A stretch of 63,182 nt of DNA, the filler included, from Rozella allomycis CSF55 (lineage: Eukaryota): assembly GCA_000442015.1 (NCBI GenBank). It is 15 parts of 15 records of this genome, joined end to end, with 100 filler letters (N's around TTAATTAATTAA, not from the genome) between each part and the next. Parts side by side here need not be neighbours in the genome. Positions count along the whole stretch, not along the records: positions 33,459 to 38,949 come from KE560746.1; 14 more parts are not named here. One strand, 5' to 3'. The notes beneath the pieces are model-generated. The model ran no database searches. It was not told where the DNA came from and saw only the letters and a list, made by a program, of their open reading frames with translations. Position 1 is the first letter of the stretch; the number at the start of each line of letters is the position of its first letter. This document shows positions 28,260-53,400 of this stretch, one piece after another. Both the position numbers and the translations under genes were made by a program.

Positions 28260-28822
28260 GGGCTTGTTTCATGATGCTCCTCTCTGCTTTGATCCCTGTA
28301 AGACAGGGGTAGTTTATTCAATTGCCAGGTTTTTGTAAGAAATTTGTCTCCGCTACAAAGCGGAGCACTTACGCTTTCTCCTCAAGTATATATTTTGCAA
28401 CCCATTCGGGGTGTTATTTTACAATACAATACTAAATAATGTTTTAGCTTTTTAGACCATCAAAAATTCAAATCTGTCGGGCTGAACTGTTTTTCTGTTA
28501 TCCGAGCCGCGGAAACTATGGAGAACACAATTTTTTATTTTAACAAACATTGTGAACTTTATTTACGTTGGTTTTTCTTCTTATGAAACCAACTCGGTCC
28601 ATCCACACAATCAACCTCGAATAAATAAGATAATTTAATAAAGTAACTTTGTTCAACCATTTTTTTACCTTAGCACAAAAATTTTCTTCATAAGTATACA
28701 AATAGTGTTTTATTTTCAAACTAAGCAGAGCAAATACACAAGCTGACATGAAACAGAAATTTATAAAATCAAATTTCTGATTTTCAAGGCGGAGGCGGAG
28801 CAGGGCGTCACGAAACAGGCCC
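28260..28822. mobile_element. Tourist-like (PIF/Harbinger) MITE, ~563 bp
   Basis: Left TAA|GGGCTTGTTTCATGATGC; right GCGTCACGAAACAGGCCC|TTA; imperfect TIRs (22/30 matches); no convincing ORF. Confidence 0.8.
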
Positions 28823-28949: not shown

Positions 28950-29220
28950 CTGAACTGTTTTTCTGTTATCCGAGCCGCGGAAACTATGGAGAACACAATT
29001 TTTTATTTTAACAAACATTGTGAACTTTATTTACGTTGGTTTTCCTTCTTATGAAACCAACTCGGTCCATCCACACAATCAACCTCGAATAAATAAGATA
29101 ATTTAATAAAGTAACTTTGTTCAACCATTTTTTTACCTTAGCACAAAAATTTTCTTCATAAGTATACAAATAGTGTTTTATTTTCAAACTAAGCAGAGCA
29201 AATACACAAGCTGACATGAA
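28950..29220. repeat. Second near-identical copy of the MITE interior (28483-28752)
   Basis: Direct ~270-bp duplicate starting after a single N. Confidence 0.85.
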
Positions 29221-29320
29221 NNNNNNNNNNNNNNNNNNNNNNNNNNNNNNNNNNNNNNNNNNNNTTAATTAATTAANNNNNNNNNNNNNNNNNNNNNNNN
29301 NNNNNNNNNNNNNNNNNNNN

Positions 29321-33358: not shown

Positions 33359-33458
33359 NNNNNNNNNNNNNNNNNNNNNNNNNNNNNNNNNNNNNNNNNN
33401 NNTTAATTAATTAANNNNNNNNNNNNNNNNNNNNNNNNNNNNNNNNNNNNNNNNNNNN

Positions 33459-36400
33459 TGAAAAGTCGAATATAATTGAAAAGTCAAATGTTTTAGTAAA
33501 TGAAAAGTCAAATATTCTGGAAAAGTCGAATGTTCTGGTGATTGGAAAAAGCGGAAAATCATTATACGTCCAGTCAACCTTCAAAAACGTGGCAACAGTG
33601 TACTGCAGCCGCCAAACAAGCTGGCTGGACCTTGTGCGAGAGATCAAGAGCCACGGCATGCTAGTCTCTTGTACGCGCGGCAAGCAATTCAAGCCCAAGA
33701 AGAACCCATTGACGTTGTATGTGAAGAATGTGCACGAGGTATTGATGGATGCGTACGAGTCTAGTACTGTGTATAGTTTTGTGTATGGATTGATTAACAA
33801 TAATGGGTTTTATGATGAGAATGGCGAGTGGATTGCGTGTGAGGTGGGTGTTGTGTTGGGGAGTGAGAGGGCGATTCAGTGTGAGAGGCTGGGTGGGTGG
33901 TTGGATGTTGTTGTGGTTGGGGAGATGAGGGATGAGGAGGTTGGTGGTTTTATTAGGGATTGGTTGATGAGAGGCGTTAAAGACGTTGATAATATTGGAG
34001 ATGAGGGTGTGGAGAAGATTGTTGGGAAGATTATGCAGGTTTATTTGGGGTGCAAGTGTGGAATGAAAACATTGAATAAAATATTAAAGAGGCTTGTAGG
34101 TAGAATAAAGAGGGAAATGAGTTTTGATGAGATTATTGTTTGTGTGTATAATCTGTGTGAAAGGTTTATTGGGGATTCAGACGTTGCAAAGTCTAGAGAG
34201 ATCAAGAGAATATTTAGCAAGAGGGAAGAGATGAAGAGTGTTAGAGAATTGAATTTTGAAAAGTTGATGATAGACAATATGATAATAGTTGGCGAGAACA
34301 ACAGTGGCCGAAGAAGCCTCCTGAACGACCTTCAAATAGAAATATTCGAGTTGAATGAAACATTAAACTATCAATTCAAGCAATTCTCTAATCAAATAAA
34401 GAATATTCTTAATTGTAGGGGAGAAAAGATGGTTGTTGTGTATGATTACCAGATTAACGATTGGATATTGAATTGTGTGCATTTGTTTGTGAGTAGTTTG
34501 GATGTAAAGTATTTGATGAATGACGATGATTTGAAGCAGGTTGATGGTGAGAGGCTGGTGAAGAATGAGCTGTATTTTGTGTTTGTGGTGAAAAGTGTTG
34601 GAGTGTTTGAAGGGTATCCAGGGATTTTGAATGAAATGAGAGTTGTTGAATTTGAAGGAGTAAAGGATGTTAAAGATATCAGTGTTGTTAGTGAAGGGAG
34701 TGAAGGAAGAGAAGGGAGTGAAGAAAGTGATAGAATAAGTGAGAGTGTTATTCAGAGTAAATATTATTAGTGCTTCTATGTTTAGGGTTTAACAATTGCA
34801 AGTCATTTAAGAATTCATTTGATTTGTGGGTTGGATATAAACTATTCTTGAAAATAAAGAATAGAGAAATGGATAAAATAAAAAAAGAATTAGAAAGATA
34901 TGAAAATGGATTAAAAACAATAAAGAATGCGAATAAAGTAGTTAATGATCTAAGCAGAGAAGCAGAAGAACAAGAAAAGGAACTAATAATCAAACAAACA
35001 GAAGCAGATGAATCCTTAAAACTAATTACCTTTAAAATGAACGATTCATTAAACAAGCAAAAGATAATCCAAGAGTTAGTTTCAACATTGAACAAGGAAG
35101 AAGAGGATTTGAAGAAGAGGAGAATTGAAATTGAGAATGAGTTGATGCAAGTTGAGCCAGCTATTAGTAAAGCGAAAGAAGCGATTGGAAAAATTAAGAA
35201 TGAGAATTTGAGTGAAATTAGATCACTGAGATCGCCGCCTAGTTTGATTAGGGATTTGTTGGAAGGGGTTTTGATGTTGATGGGTATTTATGATACTTCG
35301 TGGACTTCAATGAAATCATTTCTAGGTAAAATGAATTGAGGGGATTAAATTAGGTAATTCAAGTGTTCAGGTTTTAATTAGGTAATTGATTTAGTTAAAC
35401 TCTCAAAGGTAAAAAGACGGTCAAGGATGAAATAATAAATTTCGATGCTAGGAACATCAACAAAGAAACAAGAAAATCTATAGAAAAATTAATTCAAGAA
35501 AAGAGTGAAGCATTCGACCCCATAAACATTAAACGATCATTCGTAGCTGCCGAGCCCCTAGTATTATGGCTCAAAGCGCAATTGCAATACTCGATCGTCA
35601 TTGAAAAAATAAAACCATTAGAAGGTGATTTAAACATGCTGAACAATTCACTGAATAAATCGAGAGGCGAGATTGAAGAAAAGGAGAGTGAATTGAAAAG
35701 ACTGGAGGCCGAGTTGGAAGAGTTGAGGGTTGATTTTAGTAGAAAGACTAGTCAGACGGAGAGTTTGAAGATAAAGTTGGGGGTTGGGAGGGAGAGGATT
35801 GAAAAGGCTAGCATGCTGTTGAGCAAGTTGAGGGATGAGCAGGAGAGGTGGAGTGTTGTTGTTGGGGAGTTGGAGGGGAGAGTTGGGGTGTTGGATGAGT
35901 TTGTATTTAAGCGAGTTGAATTAATCATCAAAGGGGAAGTGGGAGAAGAAGTAGAAGGAGTGGAAGGGGAAGAAAGTGTTGACATTGTAGAAGGAGTTGA
36001 AGTAGAAGGTGAAGTTGACAATCACAATATTGATACCCTTTCAGCAAGTAATAATCCAGTGGATGTGGCATTGATGAGATTGAATGAAACTATTTTGGTA
36101 AGTTTGATTAGAGATCCATTAGATATTTGCATTGATTATTTAAAAGATTATCAAATTATAAATTACAATGATTCTTCACTGTTGAGACAATTAGAATTAG
36201 CCATGAAATTGGGAAATAGAATAGCTATTAGGAATATGAATGAAATACCAAGTTATTTGGGTTATTTGATTTCTAATATTTCTAAAACAGATGAGATTAA
36301 ATTGTTGGATAAAGAAATCAAAATTTCTTCAGGTAGAATAGATCTATTGTGGCATAGTTAATAGGTACCTCAGATCTATAATCTAAACAAGGGTTTAAAT

Positions 36401-38949
36401 TGGTTTTAATTACAAAAAATAAAGAAATAAAATCATGTGAATCTATTTTGGATTGTTTAACGATAATTGATTTTAATTTAACGAGAAGAGTGTTGAGTAA
36501 TAAATTTCTAGATTTGATTGTGAATAAAATGAATCCAGAAAATCAATTGAAAAAAGAAGAAATAAATTTGAAGCAAAAAGAATTGAATTTCAAGTTGATA
36601 GAATTGGAAGATGAATTATTGAAGCAATTGTCAGAAACAAATGATCTTCTTTCAAATGAGCCACTTTTACTTTCACTTGAAGAGATTAAAATTCAGTCTT
36701 TGAATATCAAGAAAATATTGAATGAGAATTTGATTTTGCTAAAGAATCTTCAAAACCAGTTTATCCAATTTAAAGAAATTACAGACTTTGCAAGTAGATT
36801 TTATTTTGCTTGTGAGAAACTGAAATCATTCAATTCAAACTATTTTGTTTCTGTGAAGCAATTTGAGTTTGTATTGTTGGAAATTATTTCTGTTGTTGAT
36901 TCTAACTTTTTCAAAAGAGAATTTGTTAAATCTGTTTTTAGTATTCTGGCTAGGTTTGTTGTTGAAAGAGATCAATTAGCTGTGTATTTGTTTATTGTTA
37001 AAGAAATGTATGAGCAGGTTGTTAATCAAGATGAATGGGATTATCTCAAAGGTAAGCGAGTTGGAAATGTTTTGTGAAAGGGAATGTAAAGAAAAGTAAA
37101 TCTTATGGCACTGCTGATGGTAATTCAAATGGTAAAGTGAGTAATTCAACTATTACTTTATCAAATTCATTCTTTGAAAAGTATAAAGTAGAATTGAATT
37201 CATTGGCTAATTGTAAATTCTATTCAAAATTAAACTTTAATGATCCACTAAAATGGATTGAATGGTTAAAATCTTCAAATCTAATCTCAAACTTTCCATT
37301 TCCAAATTTAACGTAAATCACATTATAAAACCTTAAGAGATATTTCCAGAAACTACTTTTAATTAAAATATTCAAACCAGAATTATTCACAAATTATTTA
37401 AAGTCATTTATTTTGAATCTTGTTGGATTAAATAGTCTTCCTTGCTTTGATCTCAACTTGAATTCTATTTATAAAAATGGCTTGCCCATTCTTTGTTTTA
37501 CTTTTCCTGGTTCTGATCCATTTTCTCACATTAATTCTATTCCTAATCCAAATCCACCAATTATAGTAACGTTTCATTTTTGTTTTAATCTAGGTACCTC
37601 ATCTATTTTTTTACTAATCTAGGTACCTCATTTAGTAAATTTCTGATCTAGATCTCGCCAAAAATTTCTAAAAATAATCTATTCAAGATTCTTACAAAAG
37701 CAGTGAATGACAATAGTATTGTTTTGATTGAAAATATTCAATTTGTTGAATTCCAAGATGAAATAGTTTCATTCCATCAAAACAATCCATTATTAACTTT
37801 ATTCATGANATCTGGTTTCTGATTATTGCATTAAAGTTTCCTTTGAATCTACTTTTAACATTAAATTAAATTGTAAAAGATTACTCAATGGTAATTCACT
37901 TTAAACTATTCCAATAGATTACATTGATGCTAAAGAGTTGAATTTGAATAGATGTTTCAAAGTTGCATGGCTTCATTCTATTTTAATAGCTAGAAAATCA
38001 ATTATTCCAATTGGCTTCCTCAAAGATTATGAATTCAGCGATACAGACTTTAAAATAGCCATCAAAATAGCGTCAACTACAAATGAAACCAGTTTATTCA
38101 AAAGTTTACTAATATCGTCTGCTTATGGTCCTAAAATTGATAATAAAATAGATCTTGAAAAATTAGTTATTCTAGTCAACAGTATCTTCAATGCTAAAGA
38201 TTTCAAACTGGATGGGCTAAAAGCTTCGTCTGATGTGAATGTTTCAAGTATTACAGGTATTCTGCAGTGGTTGGATAATGCTGCAGTTGATGACTTTGAA
38301 GCAATGTGTTTGCCAGCGAATACACTTGTCATGAAATCTCTGTTGGATTTAGACTACACTTTGAAACTTTTGCGATCAGTAAATGAATTTAAATGTTTTG
38401 TTTCTGATTAGTTTTAAATCTGTGGTTGGTAGTAGCGATGGGTTGAAGAGTCAATGGCTGGAAATCAAGAGTCAGTTGGCCAAGTTTAGAAATAATGAGA
38501 CGAGAAGAAGCAGTGAAGGAGATGAAGCCTTTGTGGTAGAGTTTTGTGAATTGGAGTGCCAGTTTGGATGGGATTTGGTCGAGTTTGTTGACAAGCAGAT
38601 GGAGAATTTGCATTCTTTGCATGATGAAACTCCTGACAGGTAACACACAGTAACATAAATTAATTCTTAGGTAAATATAGCCCAATGAATTAAGGTAGCT
38701 GGCTATTATTCTGGGAAGGTCCATCGTCAATCTCTGACTACTTTAACAGCATCTACCAGAACATTTCGCATCAATACACTCTCCCAACCACCTCAAAGGA
38801 TCCAGTCACCTTGGAATTCATGTTTAATCCAGANAATTCATGTTCAATCCAGATTCATTCATCGCTGCAGCCTCACTCCTCACCTCCATCGACTCGCCAG
38901 TCGCATGTCTCTCATTCCAACCAACGCCAAACGCTATTCACATATCATC
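33459..38949 (+). CDS. DYNC2H1: Cytoplasmic dynein-2 (retrograde IFT) heavy chain, AAA3 to C-terminal region, highly divergent
   Basis: [10 protein letters not shown]; stalk/[99 protein letters not shown]. Confidence 0.92.
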
Positions 38950-39049
38950 NNNNNNNNNNNNNNNNNNNNNNNNNNNNNNNNNNNNNNNNNNNNTTAATTA
39001 ATTAANNNNNNNNNNNNNNNNNNNNNNNNNNNNNNNNNNNNNNNNNNNN

Positions 39050-40376
39050 TTTTGTTTTCGTGTCTTCCAACTCACCAAATTTCCATCAAAAAATATTAAA
39101 TATCCTGTTGTACTTTTTCCTGTATCTTTATCCGTTGCCCAATCTGCATTTCTGAACCCTTCTACCTGTATCCTTCCTTTTTTCACACTTGATACGCCAT
39201 CGTCACACTTGTATGTGAGAAAGAAATCTTTCGTTTCCTTTAAGTATCTCATAATTCGTTTGACTAATTTCCAATGCTGTTCCCCTGGATTTTCCACGAA
39301 TCTACTTGCCATTGTCACGGCGCTACTAATGTCGGGTCGTGGCATTGCTTGAATCCATTGAAGGTTCCCTATCGCCTCCCGACGCCATGTTCACCGCGCT
39401 ACTAATGTCGGGTCGCGTCATTGCTTGAATCCATTGAAGGTTCCCTATCGCCTCCCGATATGGTATCTCAATTTCTCAGCTTCACTTTGTGGGCTTTGTG
39501 ATGTGCTGTAGTCGGCCCCTCTTTCCATTGGTGTGGATATTCCTGCGCATTCTTCCAATCCAAATTTTTTNCGGTATTTCCTTCATTCTCAATTTCGCAG
39601 CTTCACTTTGTGGGCTCTGTGATGTGCTGTAGTCGGCCCCACTTTCCATTGGTGTGGATATTCCTGCNTTCAATTTCTCTGCTTCACTTGGTGGGCTTTG
39701 TGATGTACTGTTCTTCTAATCCAAACTTTTTCAAAGTATCTTCATAAAATGTTTCTTGTGACAGTCTTATCTCTTTCTTTTCCGCATCTTGTTCAATGTT
39801 ACTTCCTAAGCACCAATTCAATTTCCCCAAGTCCTTTATCTTGTATTGAGCGTTCAGGTATGTTTTCGTCTCACTCAGCATTTCTTCGCAGTTCGTTGCT
39901 ANCAATGATTTCTTCAGTTTGCACACCTTCGTTTCAGATCCTTTTTCGGCGAAGCCATTTGGTTGTTCCATGTAAATCGTCTCACTAATCTTACCGTTGA
40001 GATACGCAGNTCGTAGAGCGCCAATATAATTGTCTTATTCTTTTGTTTCTTGGTGTATACGCAGTAGTCGGACTGGCATCTCTTGAATCCCGCCCTTTTC
40101 TAATCCTTGTCATTGCGCATGTTCCATTGTCGTCTAGCTTGTTTCAATCCATACAATAATTTTTTCAGTGTGCATACTTTCGTTTCAGATCCTTTTTCGG
40201 CGAAGCCCTCTGGTTGTTCCATGTAATCGTCTCACTAATCTTACCGCTGAGATACGCAGTTTCGACTTTTAATTGGTGTAGTTTATAGTGTCCTGACGCG
40301 GACAGTGCAATAATTGCTTTCACTGAAGTATGTTTCGCCACTGGTGCATATGTTTCGAAGTAATCTCTCCCTTTCA
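39050..40376 (-). mobile_element. Ty1/copia LTR retrotransposon RT and RNase H fragments, collapsed and degenerate
   Basis: TYAPVAKHTS; AYLNGKISETIYMEQPNGF...VCKLKKSL; IKDLGKLNWCLG; RPDISSAV; ADWATDKDTGKSTTGY...VSWKTRKQ. Confidence 0.92.
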
Positions 40377-50413: not shown

Positions 50414-53400
50414 ATGGCCTACACGTCGAAAAACAAGCGAGGATTATTGGAGGACATGGTACTTTTGTCACGGATAAATGAATCTGAAATCAATGATAAC
50501 TTGAAGAAAAGATATGACGATGATCTAATATACGTAACCCAGCCGTTGTTTAATTACAGACATATATTGGCCCAGTTTTAATTGCCGTTAATCCGTTTAA
50601 AAAATTGAGTTACTTTACAGATAAAGAGATTGAATTGTATCAAGGTTCTGCTATGCATGAGAATCCACCACACATATATGCGATTGCTGACGCAATGTTT
50701 CGAAACATGCTGATTGATGAAGAAAATCAGTGTGTCATAATATCGGGTGAAAGTGGGGCTGGAAAAACAGAGAGTGCGAAATTGGTGATGAATTACATAT
50801 CCGCCGTTTCTGGGAAAGGAGGAGAAGCAGTCGAAAGGATAAAATATATTATTCTTGAAAGCAATCCGTTGCTTGAATCGTTTGGAAATGCAAAAACACT
50901 GAGAAACAACAATTCTAGTAGATTTGTAATTTGAGATTATTCGTTAAATAGGGGAAATATTTTGAGATTCTTTTCAATCGTGGAGGGATGCCTGTTGGAG
51001 GAAACATTTCAAATTTTTTGTTGGAAAAGGTGAATTTCGAATTATTTTTTAATCTAGTCACGTGTTGTTGGATTAAAGCAAGGGGAAAGAAATTTTCATA
51101 TTTTCTATCAAATGACAAAAGGCGCTAATAAATTTGAAAAGGAGAACTATGGAATGACAAATCCTGATTATTTTAATTATCTGCGTCAGAGTGGAACATA
51201 TGATGCGGATGGGATTGACGACGTTGCGGATTATCAGGAAGTTAAAGTATGGACAATATATTTATGCAATGTATTTAGAAGGCGATGGATATTTGTGGTT
51301 TTTCTAAAGAAGAGATTAGTTGTATTTTTGAGCTGGTTGCTGGTATATTGCATTTAGGAAACATTGATTTTATTGAACAAGGAAATGGAGCAGTGGTTAG
51401 AGATCCTGACAGTATGATTGTTGTGTATGATTTATAGCACTTAGCTTCCCATCATATTTGCTTGGGATTAAAGAAAATGAATTGTCAAAAAAGTTGCTTA
51501 GTAGAATAATGAACTCTGGCAGCAAAAGAGGAAGTACGTATGATGTTCCAATGAATGTTCAACAAGTAAAAACGTTGATTATTCTTGAAAGGCTACAAGT
51601 GCAAGAGATGCATTAGCAAAGGCTTTGTATTCTCGGCTATTTGATTGGCTTGTGAAGGCAGTTAATAGAGCAATGACAAGGAAAGAAAAATCACAAACTG
51701 TAAATCTTGGAGTTTTGGACATTTACGGATTTGAAATTTTTGAGCAGAATGGTTTTGAACAATTTTGTATAAATTATGTGAATGAGAAGCTGCAGCAAAT
51801 ATTTATTGAATTGACATTAAAATCTGAGCAAGAAGAATATGTAAAGGAAGGCATTAAATGGACTCCAATTGAATTTTTCAATAACAAAATTGTTGTTGAT
51901 TTGATAGAGGGAAAAGTAAGAATATTTTTTGTTGATTTTAGCGCCCTGTTGGAATCATGGGAGTGTTGGATGACATTTGCGCGACAACTCATGCGATTAC
52001 TGAGGGATCAGATGTGAAATTTGTACAAAAAATGACAGATGTTGTTGGCAGTAATCCACACTTTCAAGGCATGTCCACTCATTTTATGATTAAACACTAT
52101 GCTGGGAACGTTACTTATGAATCTGAAGGGTTTTCTGAATCAAACAGAGATAGTTTGTTTAAAGATTTGGTATTGCTAGTTCAAACAACATCAAAGTAAA
52201 CTACAATTATTTATCATTCAACAGAAATTTTATTAGAGATTTGTTTCCAGAGGACATTAATGAAGATTCCAAGAAACGACCAACAACATTCTCGTTTAAA
52301 ATAAGAAACCAAGCCAATGAGTTGGTAAAGGAACTAACAAAATGCAAACCTCATTATATTCGCTGCATAAAACCAAACGAAACGAAAAGACCCAGAGATT
52401 GGGATTCAAAAAGGTAATAAACAAATTAAAGATGGACAAGGGTTGATCATCAAGTTCGATATCTAAATTTAAAAGAAAATATAAGGATTAGAAGAGCTGG
52501 GTATGCGTATAGAGAAACATTTGAGAAATTTCTGAAAAGGTAAATAAACTTTGTATTCAAAAACAATAGATATGCTATTTTAACTAGAGAAACATTTCCG
52601 TGTTGGAATGGAAGTGTAAATGATGGCATAAATCATATTATGAATTCAGTAAAAATGGAAAATGATCAATTTCAAATTGGCTTGACTAAAATATTTATAA
52701 AGAATCCCGAATGTGTAACAATTTAATTTTGAATTTATGAATAGTTGTTTCTGTTGGAAGAAACTAGAGAGCGCAAGTACAACGCCTATGCGAAAATAAT
52801 TCAACGAGCATTCAGAAAATACAAAATGAGAAAATATTTTCTTGAATTAAAAAAGAAATGTAAACAATTAATCTCTCTTTTTAAATAGCATATGATATTG
52901 TTTATGGCAAGAAAGAAAGACGACGATTTACTTTAAACAGAGAGTTTGATGGCGATTATCTTCACATTCCAGAAAACCCGATAATAAAACAATTGATTGG
53001 GAAACAAAATGTTTTGTTTGCTGACAAAATAATAAAATACGATAGAAGGTTTCGACCACAAGAAAGGGAATTGGTGGTGACGAATGAAGAGATCTTCATC
53101 ATTGGCATAGAAAAAGTAAAAAGTGGACCTTCAAAAGGAACTTTTACTAAAATTGTAAAGAGAGAAATCCCAATCAAAACTGTTACGCAGATAATCACAA
53201 GGTAATCATCAAATATTACTTTAATCAGTTCAAAATGCGACGATTTCATTGTTTTACAAGTTTTTAATGACTATGATACTCTGTTTGAAAATGTTTGTAA
53301 AGTTGAACTCTTATCAGTTCTCAGCCAGCTTTACTTCAATTTAACCAGCAAGCCACTACCCTTGTCATTCAGAGATTCGTAAAATCATTTTCTTGCTTAA

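Follow-up and report, generated by a model that had tools for sequence, protein, structure and literature searches.

Can an intervening sequence of only 86 nucleotides (nt) consist of three complete introns placed end to end? This question is raised by positions 37566–37651 of a 63,182-nt stretch of DNA from the fungus-like parasite Rozella allomycis CSF55 (GCA_000442015.1; referred to below as the window), which lie on contig KE560746.1 within a gene for a cytoplasmic dynein 2 heavy chain. With confidence slightly better than even, our answer is that these positions are a dynein-2 intervening sequence composed of three autonomous mini-introns with no exon between them. The contig (33459–38949, 5491 bp) encodes EPZ35822.1 with 100% identity under the standard code. 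This protein of 1347 amino acids bears the source name 'Cytoplasmic dynein 2 heavy chain 1 domain-containing protein', and a 368-residue frame of the gene is 99% identical to a Rozella allomycis CSF55 protein that is a cluster mate of EPZ35822.1. Pfam motor domains (AAA_9 and AAA_lid_11) are present in order, and the closest full-length relatives are dynein 2 heavy chains from chytrids and animals.

The stretch separates two exons read in different frames, the one ending at 37565 and the other running downstream from 37652. Both were aligned to a profile hidden Markov model (HMM) built from 7 dynein-2 homologues:

37340–37565, plus strand: exon F, an open frame ending in phase 0, with a phmmer match to DYNC2H1 and aligned through by the HMM.
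37652–37807 and on past an assembly gap to 37890, plus strand: exon G, an open frame starting ISPKISKNN... and colinear with the HMM.

A scan for GT..AG segments of 18–200 nt linking open frames of 50 or more codons, which is noisy above 40 nt, returned 37566–37651 as the sole candidate at the exon F/G junction. In the spliced model of the contig, all 1353 + 328 codons are free of stops, and the HMM aligns this model, with X at the gap, as one domain spanning positions 675–2025 with 595.3 bits, passing straight through the exon F/G junction with a 5-residue deletion. Exon F matches the AAA6 region of human dynein 2 (phmmer to DYNC2H1 chains, E = 1.4e-4), and the start of exon G corresponds to the AMGQGQ...LKNLHLV region of dynein-2. 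Retention of any unit or unit pair of the stretch causes a frameshift or brings in an in-frame TAG, and removal of the whole 86 nt, which begins with GT and ends with AG, restores an open frame colinear with the homologues. Frames and profile together establish 37566–37651, in the predicted transcript, as an intervening sequence of which exactly 86 nt must go.

Inside it, three segments each display the features of an ordinary intron, namely a GTA donor, a branch-like YTRAT shortly before YAG, and a length of about 28 nt:

37566–37593, plus strand: unit 1, 28 nt, GTAACG...TTTAATCTAG, with a branch-like TTAAT right before the CTAG end and a donor of 6.9 bits.
37594–37622, plus strand: unit 2, 29 nt, GTACCTCAT...ACTAATCTAG, a chimera produced by a 29-bp duplication, with a donor of 2.9 bits.
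37623–37651, plus strand: unit 3, 29 nt, GTACCTCAT...CTGATCTAG.

All three units start with GTA and end with ATCTAG, and units 2 and 3 share the start GTACCTCAT. AG and GT are juxtaposed at 37593/37594 and again at 37622/37623, the arrangement of a zero-length-exon recursive splice site, and inspection by eye finds one branch-like motif per unit (TTAAT, CTAAT and CTGAT) just upstream of the final CTAG. No N occurs within 37566–37651, the nearest being a single N at 37809. A preliminary description of this DNA had called the gene a dynein gene and the 86 nt a compound intron of three units. The identity to EPZ35822.1 and the Pfam motor domains confirm the first call, and the joining of the frames and the colinearity with the dynein-2 HMM confirm the second. 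Its coordinates, unit lengths (28, 29 and 29 nt), shared ends, GTACCTCAT starts and lack of N proved accurate as well, and its three-unit parse holds in that all three units are intron-sized. No structured RNA was detected: the fold of 37556–37661 has z = -0.34, with 71 of 200 shuffles folding as well, and an Rfam search of the contig gave only one sub-threshold match, snoRNA-like (small nucleolar RNA), at 36671–36751 (E = 0.25).

The three-unit structure is not a product of chance. When abutting GTA..(T/C/A)AG units of 22–36 nt were chained across both strands of the window, 3 chains of at least 3 units were observed, against an expectation of 0.03 in second-order Markov simulations; of 200 simulated windows, 6 had at least one such chain and none had as many as 3. 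Of 40000 random 86-nt GT..AG sequences, 10 could be split into GT..AG units of 26–35 nt. Two short words of the array, a junction 9-mer and a donor 8-mer, are over-represented in the window, which has 4 copies of GTACCTCA (0.76 expected; 0/100 shuffles reach 4) and 3 of ATCTAGGTA (0.23 expected; 0/100 shuffles reach 3).

The units also resemble the ordinary introns of this organism. R. allomycis introns are described as about 30 nt long (PMC6349667), and a density of 2.5 introns per kb of coding sequence is given in PMC8476143; what is said here of these and other cited papers refers to the parts of their text that were available. Our reference set, 24 frame-restoring GTA introns from other genes in the window, spans 26–35 nt, with 22 of the 24 at 26–30 nt, and the units at 28, 29 and 29 nt fall within this range. 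The acceptor-side scores of units 1–3 (4.7, 5.5 and 3.8 bits) lie inside the reference range of 2.2–9.2 bits, and the unit 1 donor, at 6.9 bits, is typical of the reference introns. At each internal donor, the preceding AG would add two base pairs with the 5' end of U1.

If splicing here proceeds by intron definition, splice sites would be paired over the shortest allowed distance, and the units would therefore mostly come out singly, in whatever order. A usable AG/GT or exon/GT junction would be rebuilt each time, and all routes, the direct 86-nt cut included, would yield the same mRNA. We infer that the units are spliced separately, mostly one by one, because the strong first donor has an acceptor at the optimal distance, because the reference introns are tightly sized, and because splicing of complex introns in fungi begins with the smallest internal intron possible (PMC7138796). 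The internal sites may also be under selection.

The array carries the trace of a rearrangement:

37576–37604 and 37605–37633, plus strand: the two copies of a 29-bp tandem duplication, 25/29 identical, each spanning AG/GT.
37586–37602 and 37615–37631, plus strand: an exact 17-mer, TAATCTAGGTACCTCAT, in two copies, read from the sequence and the copy alignment.

The copies lie head to tail and their similarity is significant. Tandem Repeats Finder reports a period of 29 over 37574–37631 (86% matches, score 86), the top-scoring tandem repeat of the contig, and units 2 and 3 are the top-scoring of 666 intron pairs. Since the duplicated segment spans the AG/GT junction, unit 2 is a chimera in which the 5' end of an old downstream unit is fused to the 3' half of unit 1. 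A single 29-bp duplication of unit length, across an existing intron-intron junction, converted a two-unit array into a three-unit array. The preliminary description had proposed the tandem duplication of a whole intron, with splice signals preserved and middles diverged. The duplication itself is real; the segment that was copied is not a whole unit and instead spans AG/GT. In unit register, units 2 and 3 are identical at 22 of 29 positions with all differences interior, and this register pairs non-homologous halves, so the divergence of the middles was exaggerated and is largely an artefact of the register chosen.

Nor is the array alone in its gene. Nine intervening sequences occur in the 5.5-kb gene fragment of the contig, and besides 37566–37651 (I6) they are as follows:

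34757–34785, plus strand: simple intron I1, 29 nt.
35326–35408, plus strand: compound intron I2, 83 nt = 28 + 28 + 27.
36333–36391, plus strand: compound intron I3, 59 nt = 32 + 27, the second unit starting GTACCTCAG.
37052–37080, plus strand: simple intron I4, 29 nt.
37313–37339, plus strand: simple intron I5, 27 nt, with a GAG acceptor; absent from the public model, with the HMM colinear across it.
37891–37917, plus strand: simple intron I7, 27 nt.
38379–38445, plus strand: intron I8, 67 nt as in the public models, with no split into units.
38640–38698, plus strand: compound intron I9, 59 nt = 31 + 28, with the HMM across the junction in a weak 5.2-bit domain.

Four of the five intervening sequences longer than 35 nt in the fragment split exactly into units of 27–32 nt, and the claim that the gene holds several compound introns was thus well founded, the others being 35326–35408, 36333–36391 and 38640–38698. 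The I2 junction, SFLG/KKTV, is also that of the public proteins, and a conserved HMM motif is exactly colinear with it. The units of I2 have no significant mutual similarity (Smith-Waterman below 10), yet both of its AG/GT junctions are intact, from which it can be argued that internal junctions are maintained. The other arrays make a better case for constraint than the 37566–37651 array does, and I2 makes the best one. For I3, two donors 24 nt apart, 36333 and 36357, are both in frame, and the public models use 36357 to give a 35-nt intron. The upstream donor is favored because the homologues align better with the 59-nt model, which scores 532.8 bits as opposed to 526.5 for the public 35-nt version (+6.3) and is aligned without insertions. 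The I3 junction resembles that of 37566–37651, with a Smith-Waterman score of 12 that is reached by 3 of 2897 control windows.

Several observations weigh against the view that the three units are autonomous mini-introns. Units 2 and 3 have the donor GTACCT, whose 2.9 bits fall short of the weakest reference intron (3.6 bits), and C at +4, as in GTACCT, is atypical, being found in 1 of the 24 reference introns. The 67-nt I8 does not split, which leaves room for longer one-piece introns and cautions against any strict limit on intron length. Convincing arrays were absent outside the dynein gene in the 63-kb window: chains of at least 2 units number 12 on both strands, including three 3-unit chains of the dynein contig, where 4.9 are expected, and two-unit chains are at about the level of chance. 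All 4 of the 4 differences between the duplication copies fall outside the shared 17-mer, which gives, by hand, a p of about 0.02 for constraint; this is weak, and the selection on internal sites that the preliminary description took its pattern to imply is not supported as stated once the copies are compared in the correct register. Exon G alone has no PDB match at E up to 10, and its only Pfam match is a chance-level one to IstB, with no dynein; exon F likewise hits no Pfam family. The homology of exons F and G is seen in the profile alignment of the spliced model and not in Pfam or PDB searches with exon G alone. Finally, no RNA run was among those found to carry the locus, the one RNA run listed containing almost none of the sampled words, and the read-set contigs of four runs, all behaving as DNA, contain no joints.

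The main rival is that 37566–37651 is one ordinary 86-nt intron, removed in a single step from 37566 to 37651, whose internal AG/GT sites are unused relics of a recent 29-bp duplication. We consider this a serious possibility, albeit an unlikely one. The duplication copies are still 25/29 identical, so little time for decay may have passed, the internal donors are weak, and the unsplit 67-nt intron in the same gene may mean that longer one-piece introns are tolerated. On the other hand, the first acceptor scores 4.7 bits, within the reference range, and a strong donor precedes it at the optimal spacing of 28 nt, such that its being skipped would need explaining. The tight sizing of the reference introns (26–35 nt) speaks against an 86-nt unit of splicing, as does the fact that three other arrays of the gene keep exact internal junctions, one of them without similarity between its units.

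A second alternative follows the public annotation. The models EPZ35822.1 and RKP18729.1 both jump from about 37212 to 37918 and thereby treat some 705 nt as one intron (boundary determined by hand). Were this right, the region of about 37213–37917 would be one long intron, or a decaying and unexpressed part of the gene, and the 86 nt would have no splicing role of their own. That both public models skip the stretch is in its favor, as is the lack of a database match for exon G alone. We nevertheless judge it improbable. Once the mini-introns are removed, the frames within 37213–37917 are open in DNA of about 27% guanine plus cytosine, and they are colinear with the dynein-2 homologues: the main HMM domain runs to position 1619 with 472.7 bits for a public-like model and to 1752 with 526.5 bits for the present one, rising to 595.3 bits when the gap is bridged. 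The phmmer match to DYNC2H1 (E = 1.4e-4) falls in the same region, and 705 nt is far beyond the intron range of 26–35 nt seen in the window. The jump itself is likely accounted for by a defect in the reference:

37809, no strand assigned: assembly hole, a single N at which 26 nt are absent from the reference contig.

Contigs from read set X2 have 26 extra letters behind 37807, and length bookkeeping implies the same for X1 and X5. With the 26 letters inserted, exon G continues in frame into the sequence that follows from 37810, colinear with the profile by a hand check. The predictors' leap over 37213–37917 is thus likely due to the frame being broken by this hole.

The physical existence of the three units was examined in Logan contigs from runs X1, X2 and X5, which belong to three studies; these contigs are short-read, and the assembly may itself derive from one of the runs. 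All three units are bridged by contigs of X1 (37470–37877) and X2 (37350–38392), and an X5 contig (37580–37930) covers units 2 and 3 and has the exon/unit 1 boundary in its loose end. No contig across 37566–37651 in these read sets skips a unit. The X1 haplotype has an extra T behind 37571 and an extra A behind 37579, both in unit 1, and one base at 37606, in unit 2, is absent from X1 and X5. Among the indels listed (12 of 16), these three 1-nt indels are those of 37340–37890, and the stretch behaves as non-coding in that all three fall inside it. That the units are an artefact of assembly or collapse, absent as such from the genome, is very hard to credit even though the reference contig is locally wrong at least once, at the N at 37809, and exact duplications stand beside linkers elsewhere in the window, given that X1 and X2 bridge all units, that X5 covers two of them and the first boundary, and that haplotype-specific 1-nt indels are seen in a stretch with no N and no unit missing.

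The same contigs bear on the state of the gene. Among the differences listed (40 of 268), 36 fall in whole codons of the modelled exons, 16 of them synonymous and 20 not; the ratio of synonymous to non-synonymous is 12:4 in exons C–D, whereas a hypervariable stretch of exon E, rich in Ser and Asn, has 2:12. This pattern suggests a live gene and does not settle the matter. The read-set differences at 37138–37214, in a Ser/Asn/Thr-rich stretch of exon E, are clustered and mostly non-synonymous, and those in other parts of the gene are mostly synonymous. Coding repeats of the GAAGG type differ in length with the frame kept: X2 leaves out 9 nt in total at 34690–34730 and has 9 nt extra behind 35998.

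How does such an array compare with known systems? We read it as probably working like zero-length-exon recursive splicing and like the complex intervening sequences of fungi. At the ratchet points of Drosophila and vertebrates (bioRxiv 10.1101/006163, PMC5126111), AG/GT likewise lies inside an intervening sequence, and the donor is rebuilt after one step so that the remainder is removed in a further step. Ratchet points, however, subdivide introns of tens of kb and their use is proven by RNA data, whereas the Rozella array totals 86 nt, each of its 28–29-nt units is a full-sized intron, and the use of its internal sites is a prediction. Stwintrons and complex fungal intervening sequences (Flipphi, Fekete; PMC7138796, PMC9024468, PMC8469720) are removed by consecutive standard splicing, as is proposed here, and small tandem duplications have been suggested there as a source of new splice sites. 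In a stwintron the introns are nested, the external one having its donor, branch or acceptor interrupted by the internal one (PMC7138796). The Rozella units instead abut, no unit interrupts the signals of another, and any order of removal works. The array therefore does not belong to the stwintron class: no splice signal is interrupted, and removal of any unit leaves complete units or exon ends.

Introns can be gained when a tandem duplication includes an AGGT, the new intron running from the GT of copy 1 to the AG of copy 2 (PMC3265369, PMC4974935), and the origin of the array is a special case of this. In the cases described, exonic or exon-intron sequence is duplicated and the new intron is flanked by exons, whereas the AG/GT duplicated in Rozella is an intron-intron junction and the new intron joins an array with zero-length exons. 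The ultra-short introns of Microsporidia and Rozella (about 30 nt, PMC6349667) and of Paramecium (25 nt, PMC8997360) share the narrow 25–30-nt lengths and GTA donors but are described as single introns. Introner-like elements (PMC3609843) also place related intron sequences at different positions, and in the dynein gene the junction motif TAGGTACCTCA is found three times, at 36362, 37591 and 37620. Those elements exceed regular introns in length, are structured and number in the hundreds (PMC3609843), unlike the Rozella unit with its three copies of 27–29 nt in one gene and no predicted structure (z = -0.34). Arrays of abutting mini-introns were not found described in the available portions of the literature searched, which did not extend to supplements or the Rozella genome paper, and this absence is unproven.

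A broader proposal, which we put forward tentatively and with more doubt than conviction, is that a reduced Rozella spliceosome measures introns with a ruler of about 26–35 nt. Longer intervening sequences would then persist only as mini-intron arrays removed recursively via zero-length exons; these would grow by unit-length duplication across AG/GT and perhaps seed copies elsewhere, making up a minimal self-propagating intron family. Seeding at other sites is suggested by the resemblance between the I3 (36333–36391) and 37566–37651 junctions.

Some further features of the gene and its surroundings deserve mention. The dynein gene begins mid-protein in the window, at 33460. In I8 (38379–38445), the first 33 nt resemble a complete mini-intron ending CTGATTAG, and the rest starts with TT, not GT; this intron could be a decayed two-unit array or reflect a base error in the reference. 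EPZ35822.1 ends inside the 38640–38698 array (...ETPDSPMN), and the frame from 38699 carries a conserved dynein C-terminal motif. A reading of the window in the ciliate code (table 6) was dropped, EPZ35822.1 fitting at 100% under the standard code; the ciliate-like look came from tiny GTA..TAG introns and from frames that are open only with TAA and TAG as sense. The two-unit chain at 52507–52569, the sole chain worked through, was rejected when its first 'unit' turned out by frame reading to be myosin coding sequence. By the same reading, that myosin gene has mini-introns of 27 nt and 30 nt within 52414–52569, and the 33-nt GT..AG segment before the second is coding. A search for relatives in metagenomes gave 105 pattern matches, none confirmed by tblastn. 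Linkers of the form N44-TTAATTAATTAA-N44 join contigs at 25 sites, for example 29221–29320, 33359–33458 and 38950–39049, and neighbors in the window therefore need not adjoin in the genome. An exact 271-nt duplicate (28482–28752 and 28950–29220) adjoins a single N and a linker and seems to have arisen in the assembly. The next contig has several direct repeats of 42–81 nt at 39308–40259, with 90–97% identity and 76–251 nt spacing.

For the annotation of this genome, the public Rozella dynein-2 model appears to be about 170 motor-domain residues short and probably lacks its C-terminal end as well. It takes no account of the mini-introns or of the 26-nt assembly hole, and the annotation of the Rozella genome may often be wrong in like manner. 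For intron evolution, the array would be a case in which tandem duplications one unit long add to the number of introns, a route of intron gain that is concrete and can be dated, in a lineage next to Microsporidia, where introns and spliceosome are being lost. Arrays of abutting 28-nt introns would also be a test bed for whether a minimal spliceosome chooses its sites by a length ruler and intron definition or by signal strength, and they bear on whether zero-length-exon recursive splicing exists outside animals.

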